This document shows positions 1 through 43,087 of a stretch of DNA of 64,000 nucleotides, one piece after another. This DNA is from Clostridiales bacterium (GTDB lineage: Bacteria; Bacillota; Clostridia; Peptostreptococcales; Anaerovoracaceae). Position 1 is the first letter of the stretch. The number at the start of each line of letters is the position of its first letter. The DNA lies in contig WRMW01000002.1 in the NCBI GenBank assembly GCA_009776955.1, forward strand, positions 187,154 to 251,153, in the 5' to 3' direction. The notes beneath the pieces are model-generated. The model worked only from the letters and a program-made list of their open reading frames with translations. It did no database searches and was not told the DNA's origin. A program made the position numbers and the translations under genes.

Positions 1-339
1 ACCCCAGAAGAAATCGAAAGCCTGAACAATCAAAAGCTCGAAGTCCCGGACTATACGGGCTGGACGTTGGAGGATGCAAAGGCCTCTCTGGAGCGCTTTG
101 GGCTGAAGACAAACATAGGCGTCTTTCTCGGCGATGTGGCAGAGCTGAATGAGGGGGGGGATGATGGCGACGAGGACGGCGAGGACGGCGAAGACGGGGA
201 CGCATCTGGGTCGCTCAGCCTGGTCGACAGCAGCTATCTCGTGAATCATCTTCGCAAGGACCTTGCGGTTGTCGACCAGTACCCGAAGCCAGGCATGAGG
301 GTTTCGCCGGGCGGGACGGTGTTCCTGTATTGGGATTAG
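1..339 (+). CDS. C-terminal end (partial, runs off the window) of a penicillin-binding transpeptidase (SpoVD/PBP2B-like), PASTA-type domain with an acidic GDDGDEDGEDGEDGD insert
   Basis: Frame 1 is open from nt 1. The tail ...VPDYTGWTLEDAKASLERFGLK...YPKPGMRVSPGGTVFLYWD looks like a PASTA domain. It lies immediately upstream of murF in a dcw cluster. Confidence 0.6.
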   Translation, partial: TPEEIESLNNQKLEVPDYTGWTLEDAKASLERFGLKTNIGVFLGDVAELNEGGDDGDEDGEDGEDGDASGSLSLVDSSYLVNHLRKDLAVVDQYPKPGMRVSPGGTVFLYWD

Positions 340-2063
340 AGGCGGTGGAGAGCATGGGGGCACGGTTTACGATTGGCGAGATAGCGGAGGCTACGGGCGG
401 GGTGCTGCCCGGAGCTCTAGGTTTTGGTTCGGGTCGTTCCGGTCTTATGTCCGTATCTACGGATACGAGGACGTTGGCTGGGGGGGAGGCGTTCTTTGCG
501 CTGGCGGGCGAGAACCACGACGCACATGACCATCTTGCGGAGGCTGCGGCGAATGGGGCGGCGATGCTTGTCGTGAGCGATGCGGGCAGGGTGCCTGCCG
601 GTTACGGAGACGCAGTCTTGGTGGTGGCTGATGTGCTCAGGGCGTACCAGGATTTGGCGGCGTACCATAGGAAGCGTCTGGGCGTGCCGGTGATAGGGGT
701 GACGGGCAGCGTCGGCAAGACGACGGCAAAGGATATGATTGCCTGCATTCTGGCAGGCCGAGCGCATGTTCACAAGACTGCGGGAAACTTCAACAACCAG
801 GTAGGGCTGCCTAAGACCATTCTTGAGGCGGGTGAGGAAGTGGAAGCGTTGGTGCTCGAGATGGGGATGGAGCGGGCAGGCGAGATGAAAAGGCTTGCAG
901 GGATAGCGCGGCCGAATGTGGCGGTGATTACAAGCATAGGGGTGTCGCACAGGGAGAATTTTGACTCGGACGAAGGGATATTGAACGCCAAGTTCGAGAT
1001 TGCGTCGTATATGGGGGCGGGTGATACGCTTGTGATCGACTCGGGGGGGGATATCCGCTTGGTGAAGCTTGCAGAGGCGGGGAGCCGCAAGCAGGGGTAT
1101 GCGGTGGTGTGTGCCGCTGAGGAAGGGACGGCGGCGGCTTCTTCTGCGGATTATTTGGTCAGCTCGGTGAGGGTTTGCGGGCAGGATGCGGGGACGGCAC
1201 GGTTTGCGATAGAGGCGAAAGGGACTGGCGAGCGCACGGAGTTTGCGGTGCCGTTGCCTGGGTCATATGCGGGAATAAGCACGGCTTTGGCGGTAGCGGC
1301 TTGCGGCGCAGTTACGGGGGCACAGTGCGGCGCTCTCGATTTTGGTGCGGGTCGCAAGGAGGGACTTTCCTGCGCAGGTCAGACTTTGCGCCGCGTCCGC
1401 AGGGGTGCTGCCGAAAGGCTCGCTACGGCTTCGCAAAGCTCCGCCTCCGCCTCGCTTTCGGAGACCCCTTGCTCCGCCTCGCGCCTTCGGCACTCGACGC
1501 AAAGTCCCTGCTACAGTACGCAAGACACGGACTGCCGCACTGCTCCCTCGGGCGATGCCCTCGCCATTGCTGCGGAGGCGCTCAAGGGGCTTGCGAGGAC
1601 ACCGCACAGGCTTGAGCCCATACGGAAGGGCGGCGTGTTGATAATCGACGACACATACAATGCGAGCCCAGACAGCGCGAAAAGCGGCCTGGCTTATCTT
1701 GCGGCGGTTCCAGCGGAGCGGCGAATAGCTGTGCTGGCGGATATGAATGAGCTTGGTGATATGTCAGAGGGGTTTCACCGTGAGGTGGGGGAGGAAGCGG
1801 CACGGCTAGGCACGGACGTGGTCTTTGCCTATGGCGATAAGGCGCAGGCGATTGCGGAAGGGGCGCGAGACGGCGCTCTCAATTTTGATGCGAGCGGTGC
1901 TGAGGTCCGCTACTATGGCACGGGTGCGAAGACGGAGCTCATTGCCGAGTTGTGCTCGATGGTCAAGGATGGCGACGCTGTCTATGTCAAGGGTTCGCGT
2001 TCGATGAAGATGGAAGAAGTGGTGCAGGCGCTCGTGGCGTGCGAAGCAGGGGAGGGCAAGTAG
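330..2063 (+). CDS. murF: UDP-N-acetylmuramoyl-tripeptide--D-alanyl-D-alanine ligase MurF, carrying a ~78-aa in-frame insert
   Basis: Mur ligase motifs are present: VIGVTGSVGKTTAKDM (P-loop) and IIDDTYNASPDS. It is 577 aa, whereas I expect roughly 450 aa for a typical MurF. The start is TTG 330 or ATG 354. Confidence 0.9.
   Translation: MGLEAVESMGARFTIGEIAEATGGVLPGALGFGSGRSGLMSVSTDTRTLAGGEAFFALAGENHDAHDHLAEAAANGAAMLVVSDAGRVPAGYGDAVLVVADVLRAYQDLAAYHRKRLGVPVIGVTGSVGKTTAKDMIACILAGRAHVHKTAGNFNNQVGLPKTILEAGEEVEALVLEMGMERAGEMKRLAGIARPNVAVITSIGVSHRENFDSDEGILNAKFEIASYMGAGDTLVIDSGGDIRLVKLAEAGSRKQGYAVVCAAEEGTAAASSADYLVSSVRVCGQDAGTARFAIEAKGTGERTEFAVPLPGSYAGISTALAVAACGAVTGAQCGALDFGAGRKEGLSCAGQTLRRVRRGAAERLATASQSSASASLSETPCSASRLRHSTQSPCYSTQDTDCRTAPSGDALAIAAEALKGLARTPHRLEPIRKGGVLIIDDTYNASPDSAKSGLAYLAAVPAERRIAVLADMNELGDMSEGFHREVGEEAARLGTDVVFAYGDKAQAIAEGARDGALNFDASGAEVRYYGTGAKTELIAELCSMVKDGDAVYVKGSRSMKMEEVVQALVACEAGEGK
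1317..1550. repeat. GC-rich palindromic insertion, in frame within murF
   Basis: Several other reading frames are also open here: track ORFs 1175..1615 and 1342..1641 (+) and 1263..1607, 1151..1357 and 1582..1803 (-). Long-range inverted repeats are GACTTTGCG 1382-1390 / CGCAAAGTC 1498-1506 and GGGACTTT 1361-1368 / AAAGTCCC 1501-1508. A GNRA-type mini-hairpin GCCGAAAGGC lies at 1410-1419. The encoded peptide is Ser/Arg/Cys-rich and unlike Mur ligases. Confidence 0.45.
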
Positions 2064-3134
2064 ATGGGACTGATAAGCATAGAGGCAAACCTGGCGTTGT
2101 CCGTAGCAATCCCGTTTGCTGTTTCGCTGGTGGTGACTGCGGTTGTTACCGCGCTCCTCATACCATTTCTCAAGCGCATCAAAAGCACCCAGGCAATCTA
2201 TGAATTGGCGCCTGAGGAACACAAGCAGAAAAGCGGGACGCCGACGATGGGCGGCATCGGCATACTTTGCGGGACTGCGGCGGGCTGTGTCGCTGCCGTG
2301 ATAGTGCTTGGGGCTATGAGCAATCTGCTCTTTATACTTGCCATTACGCTCGTGTTCGGCGGCATCGGCATGATTGACGACATGAAAAAAATAACGAAGC
2401 GCCAAAATCTTGGGCTCAAGGCACGTCACAAGCTTGTGCTGCAAATAGTTATAGCACTTGCATGCGTGCTGTACTACCTTTATGCGGCGGATATGGGCAC
2501 ATATATCATTCTGCCTTTCGTGTGGAATGTCGTGGACATAGGCCCGTGGATTTATCCGTATATGATCTTTATAATCGTAGCGATGGTCAATTCCGTCAAT
2601 CTGACGGACGGCCTCGACGGGCTTGCTTCGGGGACCTCTTTCGTTGTCGCCATATTTTTTCCGGTGTTTGCGTTGCTCGGGTTTTCGCTTTCGCTTACTG
2701 GTGGCGGCGAAGTCGTGATAGAGGGGGTCAGCCGCAGCATGGTAGATGCGATGATCTTCCCGGCTCTTGCTGGCGCGTGTATCGGCTTCCTTATATTCAA
2801 TAGACACCCAGCGAAGATTTTTATGGGCGATACGGGCTCGCTTGCCCTAGGGGGTGGGCTTTCTGCGGGAGCGATTTTTACGCATGTCGAATTGTTTCTG
2901 CCGCTCGCCGGCTTTGTTTTTGTCGCGGAGGCGCTGTCGGACATTATCCAGGTCGGGAGCTACAAGCTAAGGAATGGGAAGCGCGTGTTCAAGATGGCGC
3001 CGCTCCATCACCACTTCGAGCTTTCGGGCTGGCATGAGAAAAAAGTCGTGGCCGCTTTCGTGACTGTCACGCTTGTGATGTGCGTTGTCTGCACGGTGGT
3101 GTTGGTGCTGCAGGGAAGGGCGATGGATCTATGA
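2064..3134 (+). CDS. mraY: Phospho-N-acetylmuramoyl-pentapeptide transferase MraY
   Basis: Polytopic membrane protein with the motifs MGGI, DDxxK (MIDDMKKI), NLTDGLDGLA and FMGDTGSLALGG. dcw context. Confidence 0.95.
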   Translation: MGLISIEANLALSVAIPFAVSLVVTAVVTALLIPFLKRIKSTQAIYELAPEEHKQKSGTPTMGGIGILCGTAAGCVAAVIVLGAMSNLLFILAITLVFGGIGMIDDMKKITKRQNLGLKARHKLVLQIVIALACVLYYLYAADMGTYIILPFVWNVVDIGPWIYPYMIFIIVAMVNSVNLTDGLDGLASGTSFVVAIFFPVFALLGFSLSLTGGGEVVIEGVSRSMVDAMIFPALAGACIGFLIFNRHPAKIFMGDTGSLALGGGLSAGAIFTHVELFLPLAGFVFVAEALSDIIQVGSYKLRNGKRVFKMAPLHHHFELSGWHEKKVVAAFVTVTLVMCVVCTVVLVLQGRAMDL

Positions 3135-4519
3135 GCGGTGAGTTCGGCAATCAAAGGATTTTGGTCGTTGGCCTTGGGAAGTCGGGGATGGCCGCCTTTG
3201 ACGCGCTTGTAAGCATAGGCGTGCGGCCTTATGTGTATGACAAGAGGGACATAGAACTTGAAGAACACGCGTTCTTCAAAAAGGTTGCAGAGGCAGGCGC
3301 AGGTTGTTACCTGAACGGGAGTGAAGTTCCAGACGAGGGCTGGGGTATCTTGGTGCTAAGCCCTGGCGTGCCGCCAGACCTTCCCTTTGTCGAAAGAGCA
3401 CGGGAGCGTGGCGCCGAAGTCATAGGCGAACTGGAGCTTTCGTATAGGATAGGGAGCGGTTTATGTGCGGCTATTACGGGAACAAATGGAAAAACGACGA
3501 CGACGACCCTCGTGGGGGAGATTTTTTCAGATGCGGGGCTGAAAGCCGCCGTCTGTGGCAATATCGGGACTCCTGTAGCGGCAATGGCTATGGATGCGGA
3601 CGACGACACATGGCTCGTCACGGAAGTGTCAAGTTACCAGCTTGATACGGCAAGGCTCTACCGACCTAGGATAGCTGCGTTTCTTAACCTTACGCCTGAC
3701 CATATGGACAGGCACAAGACCATGGAGGCCTACGGGGCGGCAAAGGCGAAAATATTCGCGAACCAAGGAGAGGACGACGTGCTTGTCTACAACGCGGACG
3801 ATCCATTGGTGGCGGAGCTTGCAGAGGGGGCGAGGGCAAGGAAGCTGCCGTTCAGCCACACGCGTGAATTGACGAATGGGGCGTTCGTACGGGACGGGTG
3901 GATCATGTTTGCGGAAGGCAATAAGGATATCTCCGTAGCGCAGGTGGGTGAGTTGCGGATACCAGGAACCCATAATATAGAGAACGCGCTGGCGGCGACG
4001 GCCGTGGCGTTCGCGGCGGGAATAAGGCCGGAAGTCATAGCGGCGACGCTGAGAAGGTTTAAGGGTGTTGAGCATAGAATTGAGTTTGTTGCGGATATCA
4101 GGGGCGTGCGATATGTGAATGATTCAAAAGGAACGAATCCGGATGCCTCAATAAAGGCGGTTGAAGCGGTAGGCGACGGGGAGAACCCGGATATCCTGCT
4201 CATCGCGGGAGGCTATGACAAAGATGCGGACTTCACCGACTATATAAAGGCCATAAAGGGCCGGGTGAAAAAACTCATACTGCTTGGGACGGTTGCCGAA
4301 AAGATGCAGGAGCGTGCCATTGCTGAAGGATTTTTGCAAGAAGATGTGCCTATAGCCAGGGATATGGGAGAGGCTGTACGGCTTGCGGCAACGTCTGCAG
4401 GGCCAGGCGATACGGTGTTGCTATCACCGGCCTGCGCAAGCTGGGATATGTATAAGGATTACGAGGAACGTGGCATGCATTTCAAGGATGAGGTCTGGAA
4501 GTTGGAGGGACGTAAATGA
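3131..4519 (+). CDS. murD: UDP-N-acetylmuramoylalanine--D-glutamate ligase MurD
   Basis: N-terminus MSGEFGNQRILVVGLGKSG and P-loop ITGTNGKTTTT. The ATGA overlaps the mraY stop. The track ORF start at 3080 was trimmed to ATG 3131. Confidence 0.93.
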   Translation: MSGEFGNQRILVVGLGKSGMAAFDALVSIGVRPYVYDKRDIELEEHAFFKKVAEAGAGCYLNGSEVPDEGWGILVLSPGVPPDLPFVERARERGAEVIGELELSYRIGSGLCAAITGTNGKTTTTTLVGEIFSDAGLKAAVCGNIGTPVAAMAMDADDDTWLVTEVSSYQLDTARLYRPRIAAFLNLTPDHMDRHKTMEAYGAAKAKIFANQGEDDVLVYNADDPLVAELAEGARARKLPFSHTRELTNGAFVRDGWIMFAEGNKDISVAQVGELRIPGTHNIENALAATAVAFAAGIRPEVIAATLRRFKGVEHRIEFVADIRGVRYVNDSKGTNPDASIKAVEAVGDGENPDILLIAGGYDKDADFTDYIKAIKGRVKKLILLGTVAEKMQERAIAEGFLQEDVPIARDMGEAVRLAATSAGPGDTVLLSPACASWDMYKDYEERGMHFKDEVWKLEGRK

Positions 4520-5673
4520 TCAAGGCTCAGGGAAAACTTGATCCGCTTCTTTTGATCGTTGTTGCGATCCTTGTCATCTTCGGCATCGTGATGGTGTTCA
4601 GCGCGAGCTTTTACAGCACGATCAGCGAAGAAACCGGACCGTATCACTATCTGAGGCTTGCGGTTCAGTGGGCTATTTTCGGCTTTGCTGTAATGATTAC
4701 TGTATCGTTTCTGCCTTATAAGGTATATTACAATCTGACGCCCCTTATCATAGGCGCATCGCTGATATTTTTGCTCTTGCTTTTCACGCCGCTTGGCGTG
4801 GAAATCAACTACGCGACGCGCTGGCTGCCGCTTGGCCCTTTGACGTTTATGCCGGGTGAGTTCGCAAAACTTGCCGTTATTCTGGGCTGCGCTTGGTACT
4901 ATACGAAGTATGCGGACAAGACCAAGACGTTGCTTAATGGCTTTCTTCCGGTAATTATGGCCGCCTTGATATATTTCTACCTTATTTATAGGCAGCCAAA
5001 CCTTTCGACCGCGGTAATAGTGGTATTGACCGTGCTTGTGATGATGTTTATCGCGGGGGTGCCGGTCGCTTATTTGATAGGCATTCTTGTTGTCGGCGTT
5101 GCGGGGGTGTATTTCATGATACAGTCTGCGGCAGGGTTTCATATGTCGCGCATCACGGGCTACCTCAATCCATTCTCGGACGCACAGGGAGATTTCTTCC
5201 AGACTGTGCAAGGGCTGCTTGCGTTAGGTTCGGGGGGACTTGGAGGTGTAGGGCTCGGCAATAGCGGCGCAAAGGCATTCTGGCTTCCCTATGCCCAAAA
5301 TGATTTTATATTTGCAATTATCGGCGAAGAGACAGGGTTTATTGGCAGCATTCTTCTGCTTGTCGGATTTATTATACTCGTATGGCGGTGCATGCTCATT
5401 TCAATGCGGTGCAAGGATCGCTTCGGCATGCTGCTTGGTAGCGGGATAAGCATCATTTTTGCGATTCAGGTGGCTTTGAATATTGGGGTCGTTACTGCGG
5501 TTCTGCCGCCTACCGGCGTCATACTTCCGTTTATTAGCTATGGCGGCAACGCGATTGTGCTGTTTATGTTTTTGATCGGGATTGTATTGAATATTTCCCG
5601 AGGGGAAACGCTTGGGAAGGCATCGCGGCGTAAGCAAAAGGATCATGAGCTTGAGGAGGACGAGGCTGCATGA
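4516..5673 (+). CDS. ftsW: SEDS-family peptidoglycan glycosyltransferase FtsW/SpoVE
   Basis: About 10 TM segments. Motifs FQPSEFAK-like (FMPGEFAKL) and PFISYGG. Its ATGA start overlaps the murD stop; the murG start overlaps its own stop at 5670-5673. Confidence 0.9.
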   Translation: MIKAQGKLDPLLLIVVAILVIFGIVMVFSASFYSTISEETGPYHYLRLAVQWAIFGFAVMITVSFLPYKVYYNLTPLIIGASLIFLLLLFTPLGVEINYATRWLPLGPLTFMPGEFAKLAVILGCAWYYTKYADKTKTLLNGFLPVIMAALIYFYLIYRQPNLSTAVIVVLTVLVMMFIAGVPVAYLIGILVVGVAGVYFMIQSAAGFHMSRITGYLNPFSDAQGDFFQTVQGLLALGSGGLGGVGLGNSGAKAFWLPYAQNDFIFAIIGEETGFIGSILLLVGFIILVWRCMLISMRCKDRFGMLLGSGISIIFAIQVALNIGVVTAVLPPTGVILPFISYGGNAIVLFMFLIGIVLNISRGETLGKASRRKQKDHELEEDEAA

Positions 5674-10081: not shown

Positions 10082-10945
10082 ATGGCTATGAAAAAACGAA
10101 TGAAAACATTATTGGCGCTTGTTATGGTGGCTGCTGTTGTGGCGGGTTTGGCGGGCTGCGGGACGCCTGCTCCGGCGGAGGAGCCTGCACCTGCCCCTGC
10201 ACCTGCCCCTGCACCAGCTCCTGAGCCGGTGCCCGAGCCTGAACTGACAGGCGAGATAATGCTTGCGGCGGCGGCGAGCCTTGAGAACGCCTTTGTAGAA
10301 GAATTGATACCGCTGTTCAATACGGAATATCCAGGCGTGAGGGTCGTCGGCGTTTATGACAGCTCAGGCAGATTGCAGACGCAGATAGAGGAAGGCCTTG
10401 ATGCACAGCTGTTCTTCTCGGCGGCCACAAGGCAGATGAACGCGCTTGTGGATGGAGGGTTTATTGACGGCTCCACTGCCGTGAACCTGCTCGAAAACGA
10501 AGTCGTGCTTATCACGGGAATCAATACGGAGACGGAAGTGACGGGTTATGAAGATATTATGCTCGCTGCCAGCATCGGTATAGGCGACCCCGGCAGCGTC
10601 CCTGCGGGGCAGTACGCGGAAGAAGTCCTGACGAGCCTTGGGGTCTGGGGCGAGGTTGAGGCGAAGGCCAGCCATGGGACAAATGTGACCGAGGTGCTTG
10701 CGTGGGTCGCCGAGGGGAGCGCAGAGGTCGGCATAGTCTATATGACCGATGCGGCGAGCATGCCGGACAGGGTGAGGGTGATCGCGTCCGCGCCCGAGGG
10801 CACCCTTGTGACGCCAGTGTACTATCCCATAGGGCTACAAGCTGGCATGGGTGACAAGGCGGAGGCGGCACATGCGTTTATGGATTTCTTGCAAAGCCCG
10901 GCGGCGCTCGGCGTGTTCCGTTCCTACGGGTTCAGCACCCTGTAA
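10082..10945 (+). CDS. modA: Molybdate ABC transporter substrate-binding lipoprotein ModA
   Basis: RBS AGGAGG, then ATG 10082. Lipobox LAGC. (Pro-Ala)n linker. ModA-like core (AAASL...VYDSSG...GDPGSVPAGQYA). Confidence 0.85.
   Translation: MAMKKRMKTLLALVMVAAVVAGLAGCGTPAPAEEPAPAPAPAPAPAPEPVPEPELTGEIMLAAAASLENAFVEELIPLFNTEYPGVRVVGVYDSSGRLQTQIEEGLDAQLFFSAATRQMNALVDGGFIDGSTAVNLLENEVVLITGINTETEVTGYEDIMLAASIGIGDPGSVPAGQYAEEVLTSLGVWGEVEAKASHGTNVTEVLAWVAEGSAEVGIVYMTDAASMPDRVRVIASAPEGTLVTPVYYPIGLQAGMGDKAEAAHAFMDFLQSPAALGVFRSYGFSTL
10184..10222 (+). repeat. Tandem 12-nt repeat (CCTGCACCTGCC, about 3 copies) encoding the PAPAPAPAPAPAP linker of ModA
   Basis: Direct reading of 10184-10222. Confidence 0.8.
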
Positions 10946-42454: not shown

Positions 42455-43087
42455 CTATTCGATATCCAACAACTCGACGCCTCTTGCAAACTTGGTCTTG
42501 ACTTCGGGTTCGAGGCCGTATTTGCCGGCTATCTTCTCGCCGATGTCGAGCAGATCCTCCTTGGTGCCCGAATATATCTCAATCTCCAGTTCGCGGAATT
42601 GGAGGCTGTTGTGTCCAGCGACTATTACGCCTTCATCGACCGCAAGTTCAAGGATGCTTTTCTCGTAGTCTATGCGGATGCTCTTGCGCGTGAAGATCAT
42701 GTCGAAGATGTTTACGAGCGGGTTGCCGTCGATGATGTCGAGCAAGTCCTTCCCTTCGGCGCTCTCGATGAAAACGCTTGGGTCAGGGTTGAAGAAGCAG
42801 CATTGGTCGGAAATGGGGATATTGATTTCCGAGCGGATGTAAAGGCCGCTGATGTCGTTGTCGTCATCACGCCATTTGAGGGTCGCGACGGTGCGCTCGC
42901 TTTCGTTGCGGATGCGGAACGCGATGTTGCGTCTTATGAGCGTAAGATCCTCGGTGTCGAAATACGCCGCTTTCATCTTGATGACCTCCGGCGCCCTGTG
43001 GTCCGAGAGGGCGGCTATCCAAGGGTCGGCTAGGATGCCCTCGTATTGTTCGATATTGTCGATTCGGTATTTGAGTTCAATTTCCAT
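42455..43087 (-). CDS. CYTH-domain protein (triphosphate tunnel metalloenzyme)
   Basis: N-terminus MEIELKYRI (ExExK signature). About 210 aa. Confidence 0.75.

Follow-up and report, generated by a model that had tools for sequence, protein, structure and literature searches.

The murF gene at the start of a 64,000-nt stretch of DNA from an uncultured member of the Clostridia (contig WRMW01000002.1, positions 187,154 to 251,153; here termed the window) is interrupted in frame by a palindromic element, which has dispersed to no fewer than eight sites of this organism's genome. The insertion in murF was confirmed to be real, and the element is probably a non-autonomous, selfish palindromic sequence akin to the MITEs (miniature transposable elements with inverted repeats), which is translated in MurF as a tolerated, disordered loop. 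Its interpretation as a counterpart, in behavior, of the Rickettsia palindromic elements (RPEs) is supported by the data presented below.

The product of the host gene, UDP-MurNAc-tripeptide--D-Ala-D-Ala ligase, comprises 577 aa if read from the TTG at position 330 (open reading frame [ORF] 330-2063) and 569 aa from the ATG at position 354, which is likely to be its start, while its closest homologues, annotated as Clostridiales Family XIII or Anaerovoracaceae and sharing 45 to 63% identity, measure 475 to 537 aa. Apart from the identical protein, the best match displayed 62% identity in the search table (63% in the alignment). A first-pass annotation, made from the sequence alone, had flagged the enzyme as overlong and had attributed the excess to 78 residues separating flanks that are contiguous in other MurF proteins, and both statements were borne out. 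In an alignment with 19 homologues, these residues (GAQCGALDF...DTDCRTAPS, encoded by positions 1317-1550) are cleanly inserted between '...ALAVAAC' and 'ALAIAAEAL...' and are present in none of the 19; the Escherichia coli MurF structure 1gg4 aligns on both sides of it, and MurF entries in the PDB are devoid of the segment. A segment conserved among MurF orthologues, the circumstance which would have pointed to an ordinary lineage-specific domain, is thus not what was observed, and because its relatives are without the segment, the insert is regarded as derived. Pfam analysis identified Mur_ligase, Mur_ligase_M (residues 116-316), and Mur_ligase_C (residues 418-549), with no family between the latter two, insert included, in agreement with the earlier assertions that the 78 residues have no Mur-ligase character and that they lie at the junction of the central and C-terminal domains. 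The length of 234 nt is, as stated at the time, a multiple of three and preserves the frame, and the claim that several frames are open across the murF copy also held, as all three plus-strand frames and one minus-strand frame are free of stops. The GC skew is about +0.25 to +0.4 in the flanks and -0.02 to -0.12 in the insert. An AlphaFold2 model of MurF (mean predicted local distance difference test score [pLDDT] of 83), a check which the first-pass annotation had suggested, places the insert between helices 306-327 and 401-410, with residues 325-396 scoring below 50 between confidently modeled MurF domains; the insert is, therefore, predicted to be disordered.

Further copies were anticipated by the first-pass annotation, and seven were indeed identified in the same genome, all within genes unrelated to murF and all in phase. 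When the translations of the murF element in its four open frames were concatenated and compared with protein sequences, MurF and four other proteins were retrieved, namely, the nucleotide-sugar dehydrogenase Ugd, IspG, GalE, and a lipoyl/E3-binding E2 protein, each of which was matched by the MurF-frame peptide only, and which are encoded on three contigs, all from ENA sample ERZ27257348. An exhaustive profile search added an Fe-S oxidoreductase of 884/897 aa with three insertions (FeS_1 to FeS_3), all within one gene of 2.7 kb. The element-bearing proteins, together with the 577-aa MurF, belong to one NCBI metagenome-assembled genome (MAG) labeled 'Clostridiales bacterium' (accession range MCL2110691-2111674) and are also found in ERZ27257348. 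Dispersal thus extends to eight copies and three to four fragments in six genes on at least three contigs of one MAG, and all eight copies lie on the strand of the host gene, i.e., in the sense orientation. The murF copy was recovered by the hidden Markov model (HMM) of the family with an E value of 7e-75 and by the covariance model, R1, with 213 bits. In a self-comparison of 155 kb, the element was essentially the sole dispersed repeat.

The origin of these sequences in a MAG raises the question of an assembly or chimera artefact, as does the behavior of the ENA murF contig (L001), which is identical to window positions 1-4609, murF element included, and from which the window diverges abruptly from position 4610 onward (L001:11520 onward), near the start of ORF 4516-5673, which we take to be probably ftsW; this divergence could reflect strain-level recombination or an assembly chimera. 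An artefactual insert is nevertheless so improbable that we rule it out, because three lines of evidence agree: the insert is identical in two murF assemblies; the Fe-S oxidoreductase gene recurs with the same three insertions in an independent JGI sample (3300002469), on a contig (L007) that is 99.94% identical to its counterpart (L006) and differs by 7 single-nucleotide polymorphisms; and the copies have diverged from each other by 4 to 16% while each remains in frame, which collapsed or chimeric repeats would not produce.

Full copies of the element measure 180 to 243 bp, start with GGGG(C)GCAGTGCGGCGCTCTCGAT, and finish with CGCAAGACACGGACCGCCGCACTGCGCCC, and their ends therefore constitute inverted repeats. 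These are imperfect and extend over approximately 16 to 20 nt (consensus GGGGCGCAGTGCGGCGCTCTCGAT ... GGACCGCCGCACTGCGCCC; ends of the GGGGCGCAGTGCGGCG...CGCCGCACTGCGCCCC type), with an imperfect extension to approximately 40 nt in FeS_2. The first-pass annotation had described the segment as palindromic on the basis of two inner repeats, which are present, as 1382-1396/1492-1506 and 1357-1368/1501-1512, and had missed the terminal pair which defines the element (1315-1331/1534-1550 in the murF copy; 17 nt, 82% complementary). Between the 5' end and the core lies a stretch of variable length, which differs by up to about 36 to 45 nt among copies. The core, of approximately 140 nt, is itself palindromic, with an inner stem (1377-1387/1502-1512) and, within it, the 1382-1390/1498-1506 repeat and a GCCGAAAGGC mini-hairpin. 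Copies sharing this core are 84 to 96% identical across it, the murF core being 84 to 91% identical to the six others of this type and 38% identical to the alternate core of FeS_2. In the latter copy, the 5' and 3' ends of the family enclose an unrelated core, itself a palindrome (fold z = -4.95), and the ends would thus seem to form a module into which different cores can be fitted.

Consensus folding of six full copies with RNAalifold produced a single end-to-end hairpin of 65 pairs, in which 94.6% of the cells form a standard pair, compared to 36 to 46% when the 3' partners were slid by one to three columns. Eight pairs have changed on both sides (0 to 3 in the slid controls), of which four belong to the terminal stem (consensus helix 1), which comprises 19 pairs, and the covariation score was reached by none of 500 shuffles. 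When folded individually, seven copies yielded minimum free energy z scores of -1.6 to -4.95, and the 5' end pairs with the 3' end in every one of them. Structure above shuffled controls, as had been envisaged from the sequence of the murF copy, was accordingly found at the level of the family, in the form of z scores down to -4.95 and of covariation.

In the host frame, which is one and the same in all copies, none of the eight contains a stop codon, while the other five frames carry scattered stops; freedom from stops in all eight copies is consequently a property of the host frame only. All length variants preserve this frame, being multiples of three. The peptide specified in the host frame is hydrophilic and nearly neutral (net charge of -2 to +5), and the other two sense frames would specify peptides with a net charge of +4 to +17 (at least +10 in six of seven copies). 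The shared frame, and a conserved peptide block (LRRVRRGA.ERLA.ASQ..AS.SLSETPCSAS), would also be expected if the segment were a module with a function in the protein, for example as a loop for regulation or localization, which selection maintains at the level of the protein and which has been shuffled from one enzyme to another. Such a module is very unlikely in view of the substitution pattern, as variable core sites are distributed over codon positions 1, 2, and 3 in numbers of 16, 11, and 16, and only 8 of 29 variable core codons (approximately 28%) are purely synonymous, a proportion roughly equal, by our own estimate, to that of unconstrained change. The even spread over codon positions and the paucity of synonymous codons do not suggest that the peptide is under purifying selection, and the lack of a third-position bias indicates that the segment behaves as DNA rather than as an evolved protein domain. 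Conservation instead follows base pairing, with compensatory changes; no Pfam family matches the segment, which AlphaFold2 models with low confidence; FeS_2 retains the DNA ends around an unrelated core peptide; and the host proteins are functionally unrelated.

Where the structure of the host protein could be judged (MurF, GalE, IspG, and E2), the insertion sites are loops or linkers. The GalE insert (query residues 255-331) maps between residues 254 and 259 of 3enk and the IspG insert (query residues 75-153) between residues 80 and 87 of 3noy, with a clean gap in both cases, and that of E2 occupies an inter-domain linker. The murF and ugd copies resemble each other in their 3' flanks (..AAEA..); this likeness was considered as a target motif and rejected, as it represents host sequence conserved in each of the two families.

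Alternatively, the segment may be absent from the mature proteins, owing to intron-like removal from the mRNA or to ribosome skipping. The sense orientation of all copies is what a spliced element would need, and the strong end-to-end hairpin would bring the junctions together. A scan of window positions 1100-1800 against Rfam 15, on the other hand, returned no match even at E <= 10 and, hence, no intron or ribozyme family, and a host frame that is free of stops in all eight copies, at lengths that are multiples of three and with stops in the other frames, would be anticipated only for a translated segment. Removal or skipping is, on this evidence, highly improbable. An intein was dismissed as well: a Hint domain would, in our judgment, not fit into 60 to 81 aa, and the insert, which is of this length, is far too short, contains no Pfam domain or intein motif, and was modeled with a pLDDT below 50. 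The reading of the segment as an ordinary low-complexity linker was rejected on the same evidence as given for these rival explanations.

Searches beyond the known copies disclosed no relative in the collections covered. No second full copy was detected in the window by blastn, nhmmer, or the covariance model, and a DNA-level scan with R1 and the HMMs, which covered approximately 160 kb (of which approximately 15 kb is intergenic by our estimate), detected no intergenic copy. An exact 21-mer of the invariant core had no match in GTDB genomes (one per species; 185,579 species), and peptide patterns generated 201 matches in the same set, none of which was confirmed. In JGI metagenomes, the 21-mer had a single chance match, in a high-GC contig (L008); viral contigs contained no match to the 21-mer or to the 5'-module pattern, and plasmids yielded no blastn match.

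Within the genome, the copies are strongly clustered, and some are accompanied by remnants. A scan of the window for the 5'-end motif returned four matches where 0.19 were expected, three of them in murF. One remnant, a solo 5' end (Table 1), is located in a variable loop of the MurF C-terminal domain, and its positions 1872-1895 match the ispG copy at the 5' end in all but 1 of 24 nt. This loop (approximately residues 500-515, window positions ~1850-1900) holds low-complexity repeats of 30 to 60 aa (PGTEKA..., AAAKEA...) in several homologues (P0007, P0010, and P0050), and is generally permissive and hypervariable. A possible, weaker 5'-end remnant (GALGFGSGR; 85 to 89% identical, by blastn over 27 nt, to the 5' modules of murF and FeS_2) is situated in a variable N-terminal loop of MurF, without net length excess over the homologues. 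The FeS_1 and FeS_3 cores represent the closest pair (96% identity), the 3' ends of FeS_2 and FeS_3 are 82% identical, and the galE and ugd copies, whose host genes adjoin, share variants; copies that occupy one gene, or genes that adjoin, are one another's closest kin, which suggests that the element spreads over short distances or that conversion acts locally. A 3'-end fragment which directly abuts the 5' end of FeS_3 looks like a tandem or nested remnant.

Such clustering (three copies in one gene, the galE/ugd pair, and remnants beside full copies) would also be accounted for if the element spread without a transposase, with copies made between G-rich sites close to each other through recombination, through gene conversion, or through template switching that hairpins drive while DNA is replicated or repaired. 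The end variants shared by neighboring copies, the E2 copy without both inverted ends, and the failure to observe a target duplication or a cognate transposase are all consistent with this scenario, which we nonetheless consider unlikely. The element is present on different contigs as well, in genes that are unrelated and whose flanks show no homology to each other, and the ends are conserved and covary as inverted repeats, as would be predicted if both were recognized by a protein.

It is, therefore, the MITE-like selfish element that we propose as the probable explanation, and the following scenario may be envisaged. The element would be mobilized in trans by a transposase which recognizes its inverted ends, often over short distances, and such short-distance mobilization would explain the close kinship of copies that occupy one gene or two adjoining ones. 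An insertion would survive only in the single stop-free phase, which yields a hydrophilic, nearly uncharged peptide rich in Ser, Ala, and Arg, with permissive loops as the presumed sites of surviving insertions. The segment would remain in the mRNA and be translated as a disordered surface loop of 60 to 81 aa that MurF tolerates, and later decay through in-frame deletions may generate solo-end remnants such as that at 1860-1895.

A number of observations weigh against this proposal. In approximately 160 kb, neither a transposase nor an insertion sequence whose ends match those of the element was detected, nor was any additional match to the end motifs, and inspection of seven junction pairs, whose boundaries are blurred by G runs, disclosed no consistent target-site duplication. 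No empty-site MurF allele was present among 5.8 billion proteins. Because neither a duplication nor an empty-site allele was observed, it is from distribution only that we infer mobility, and because the cores differ by 4 to 16%, the family is not demonstrably active at present; retention of the insert in mRNA and protein is likewise what we infer. The structural claim is significant across the family only: the murF copy alone, for which structure above shuffled controls had initially been envisaged, folds no better than dinucleotide shuffles (z = -1.1; -1.6). The excess of G-U over A-C mismatches (22 versus 11, or 16 versus 11 minus one shared pair) does not discriminate between RNA and DNA, and this strand asymmetry, being not significant, was dropped as a test of RNA versus DNA constraint. 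Finally, antisense or other-frame copies were not seen and most copies were found through protein searches, for which reason the finding that all eight are genic and in phase is partly a matter of ascertainment.

The genic, in-phase pattern could thus be due to ascertainment or to a mechanism more specific than random insertion followed by selection. In the latter case, the element would be specialized for coding sequences; it would enter genes in no orientation other than sense and in a single codon phase, and would hop locally, through a mechanism which may be coupled to transcription, translation, or replication-strand asymmetry. We regard this specialized behavior as rather doubtful.

Table 1. 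Coordinates of the murF host gene, the copies of the palindromic element, and associated remnants (w, position in the window; L, contig and position)
Feature	Location	Strand	Basis or remark
murF (UDP-MurNAc-tripeptide--D-Ala-D-Ala ligase), host gene	w 354..2063	+	ORF list, Pfam, homologues, AlphaFold2
murF copy, full-length palindromic element, 234-235 nt, boundaries +/-3 nt	w 1316..1550	+	absent from homologues; family HMM; covariance model
5' terminal inverted repeat arm GGGCACAGTGCGGCGCTCTCG	w 1318..1338	+	pairs with 1528-1547; consensus helix 1
Conserved internally palindromic core	w 1377..1512	+	alignments; consensus helices 2-8; identity matrix
3' terminal inverted repeat arm ...GGACTGCCGCACTGCTCC	w 1528..1547	+	3'-module HMM matches 1509-1546, E = 7e-8
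Solo 5'-end remnant of second element, reads GARDGALNFDAS	w 1860..1895	+	5'-module HMM, E = 0.002; same phase
Possible, weaker second 5'-end remnant, GALGFGSGR	w 401..435	+	5'-module HMM, E = 0.07; same phase
ugd copy	L002:10219-10462		
galE copy	L002:9528-9745		gene adjoins ugd
ispG copy	L003:8543-8748		
E2 copy	L005:10245-10392		core only, without inverted ends
Solo 3' end	L005:10536-10565		end-specific HMM
FeS_1 copy	L006:10420-10632		
FeS_2 copy	L006:10861-11048		
3'-end fragment GCAAGACACAG, abuts FeS_3 5' end	L006:11773-11793		end-specific HMM
FeS_3 copy	L006:11793-11999		

Additional features were recorded in the window and on the related contigs. The E2 protein (L005:10001-10627) consists of 208 aa and is without the catalytic 2-oxoacid_dh domain, with dctP following at 10794; its truncated ORF stops approximately 50 nt past a solo 3'-end fragment (L005:10533-10575), and the element may be associated with truncation of this gene. 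Weak motif matches at window positions 42756 and 59118 were dismissed as chance, as one lies in an antisense gene and the second falls within a signal peptide, in another frame. A low-complexity run of acidic character (GGDDGDEDGEDGEDGD) was noted at window positions 150-200, near the C terminus of the upstream penicillin-binding protein, and a 47-nt direct repeat of 98% identity (L004:4323-4369 and L004:6347-6393) is unrelated to the element.

Among known systems, the RPEs provide the closest parallel. These (RPE-1 to RPE-10; Ogata et al. 2000 and 2002, as summarized in PMC2229807, PMC10969869, and PMC1779305) are described as elements of 100 to 150 bp with inverted ends of approximately 12 bp and a long stem-loop, which are present in frame in at least 19 protein genes, including the guanylate kinase gene gmk, in which activity is kept, while pheT harbors an RPE-7-like insert of 63 to 84 bp. 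Both families consist of small, dispersed palindromic repeats with terminal inverted repeats and a long stem-loop, whose ORF is fused in frame into unrelated conserved protein genes at permissive sites, whose peptides the host tolerates (presumably so for the present element), and which leave short, decayed remnants inside genes. The present element differs in its host, a Family XIII-like Clostridia MAG with a GC content of 55% here, as opposed to an AT-rich, obligately intracellular alphaproteobacterium; in its length (180 to 243 bp versus 100 to 150 bp); in being present in up to three copies per gene and in combining the same ends with two cores; and, as far as the scan of approximately 160 kb goes, in that none of its eight copies is intergenic, whereas RPEs are abundant in intergenic DNA. 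No sequence kinship was detected, as judged by two patterns across 185,579 species genomes. The resemblance to RPEs suggested by the first-pass annotation consequently holds for behavior and not for sequence, and denotes a likeness rather than membership of that family.

Bacterial MITEs, among which ERIC/IRU, YPAL, and the 107-bp Correia/NEMIS are known to form intragenic in-frame fusions (Delihas 2007/2008, PMC2229807), constitute a second group of related elements. Like these, the present element is non-autonomous and without a transposase gene, possesses terminal inverted repeats, and specifies transcripts that fold into long stem-loops; ERIC, YPAL, and Correia types are also of similar size (approximately 100 to 200 bp), with contiguous ORFs which now and then are joined in frame to an ORF of the host. 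Those MITEs, however, are mainly intergenic, usually generate TA target duplications, and in some cases have known cognate insertion sequences, while no target duplication, TA ends, or cognate transposase was found here (seven junction pairs, approximately 160 kb); their fusions are terminal, whereas the insertions described here are internal to essential enzymes. REP, BIME, and REPIN sequences, which are mobilized by RAYT transposases, measure 20 to 40 bp, are located outside genes, and carry a GTAG or CGTC tag (PMC3733652). They share with the present element a palindromic, repeated, and hairpin-dependent nature, while the latter is approximately ten times longer, is intragenic, and starts with a G run. 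The 'byps' of yeast mitochondria, reportedly described by Lang et al. in 2014, are said to be GC-rich palindromic inserts of 27 to 55 nt which interrupt the frame and which the ribosome skips. They too are mobile, GC-rich, palindromic, and inserted in protein-coding genes in the sense orientation, but here the frame is kept and every copy is free of stops.

Protein-coding palindromic repeats and intragenic MITEs are, therefore, a known phenomenon, which is here extended to a new phylum. Translated palindromic repeats within genes, 'unique but recurrent', are known mainly from Rickettsia and Wolbachia, with scattered enteric and archaeal cases. The occurrence of an unrelated family in uncultured Clostridia of 55% GC, including insertions in the essential genes murF and ispG, indicates that such repeats are not restricted to intracellular bacteria with reductive genomes, and provides a second system in which to compare how such elements come to be in frame. 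The insertion sites map loops of MurF, IspG, GalE, and Ugd which tolerate 60 to 80 extra residues, and it is apparent that enzymes which seem too long in a MAG can be real and need not be misassemblies. It is noteworthy that every copy seen so far is genic and in phase, with up to three per gene and the same ends around two cores. If the reading as a coding-specialized mobile element were true, the family, with eight of eight known copies genic and in phase, would represent a second, independent RPE-like instance, in the Firmicutes.

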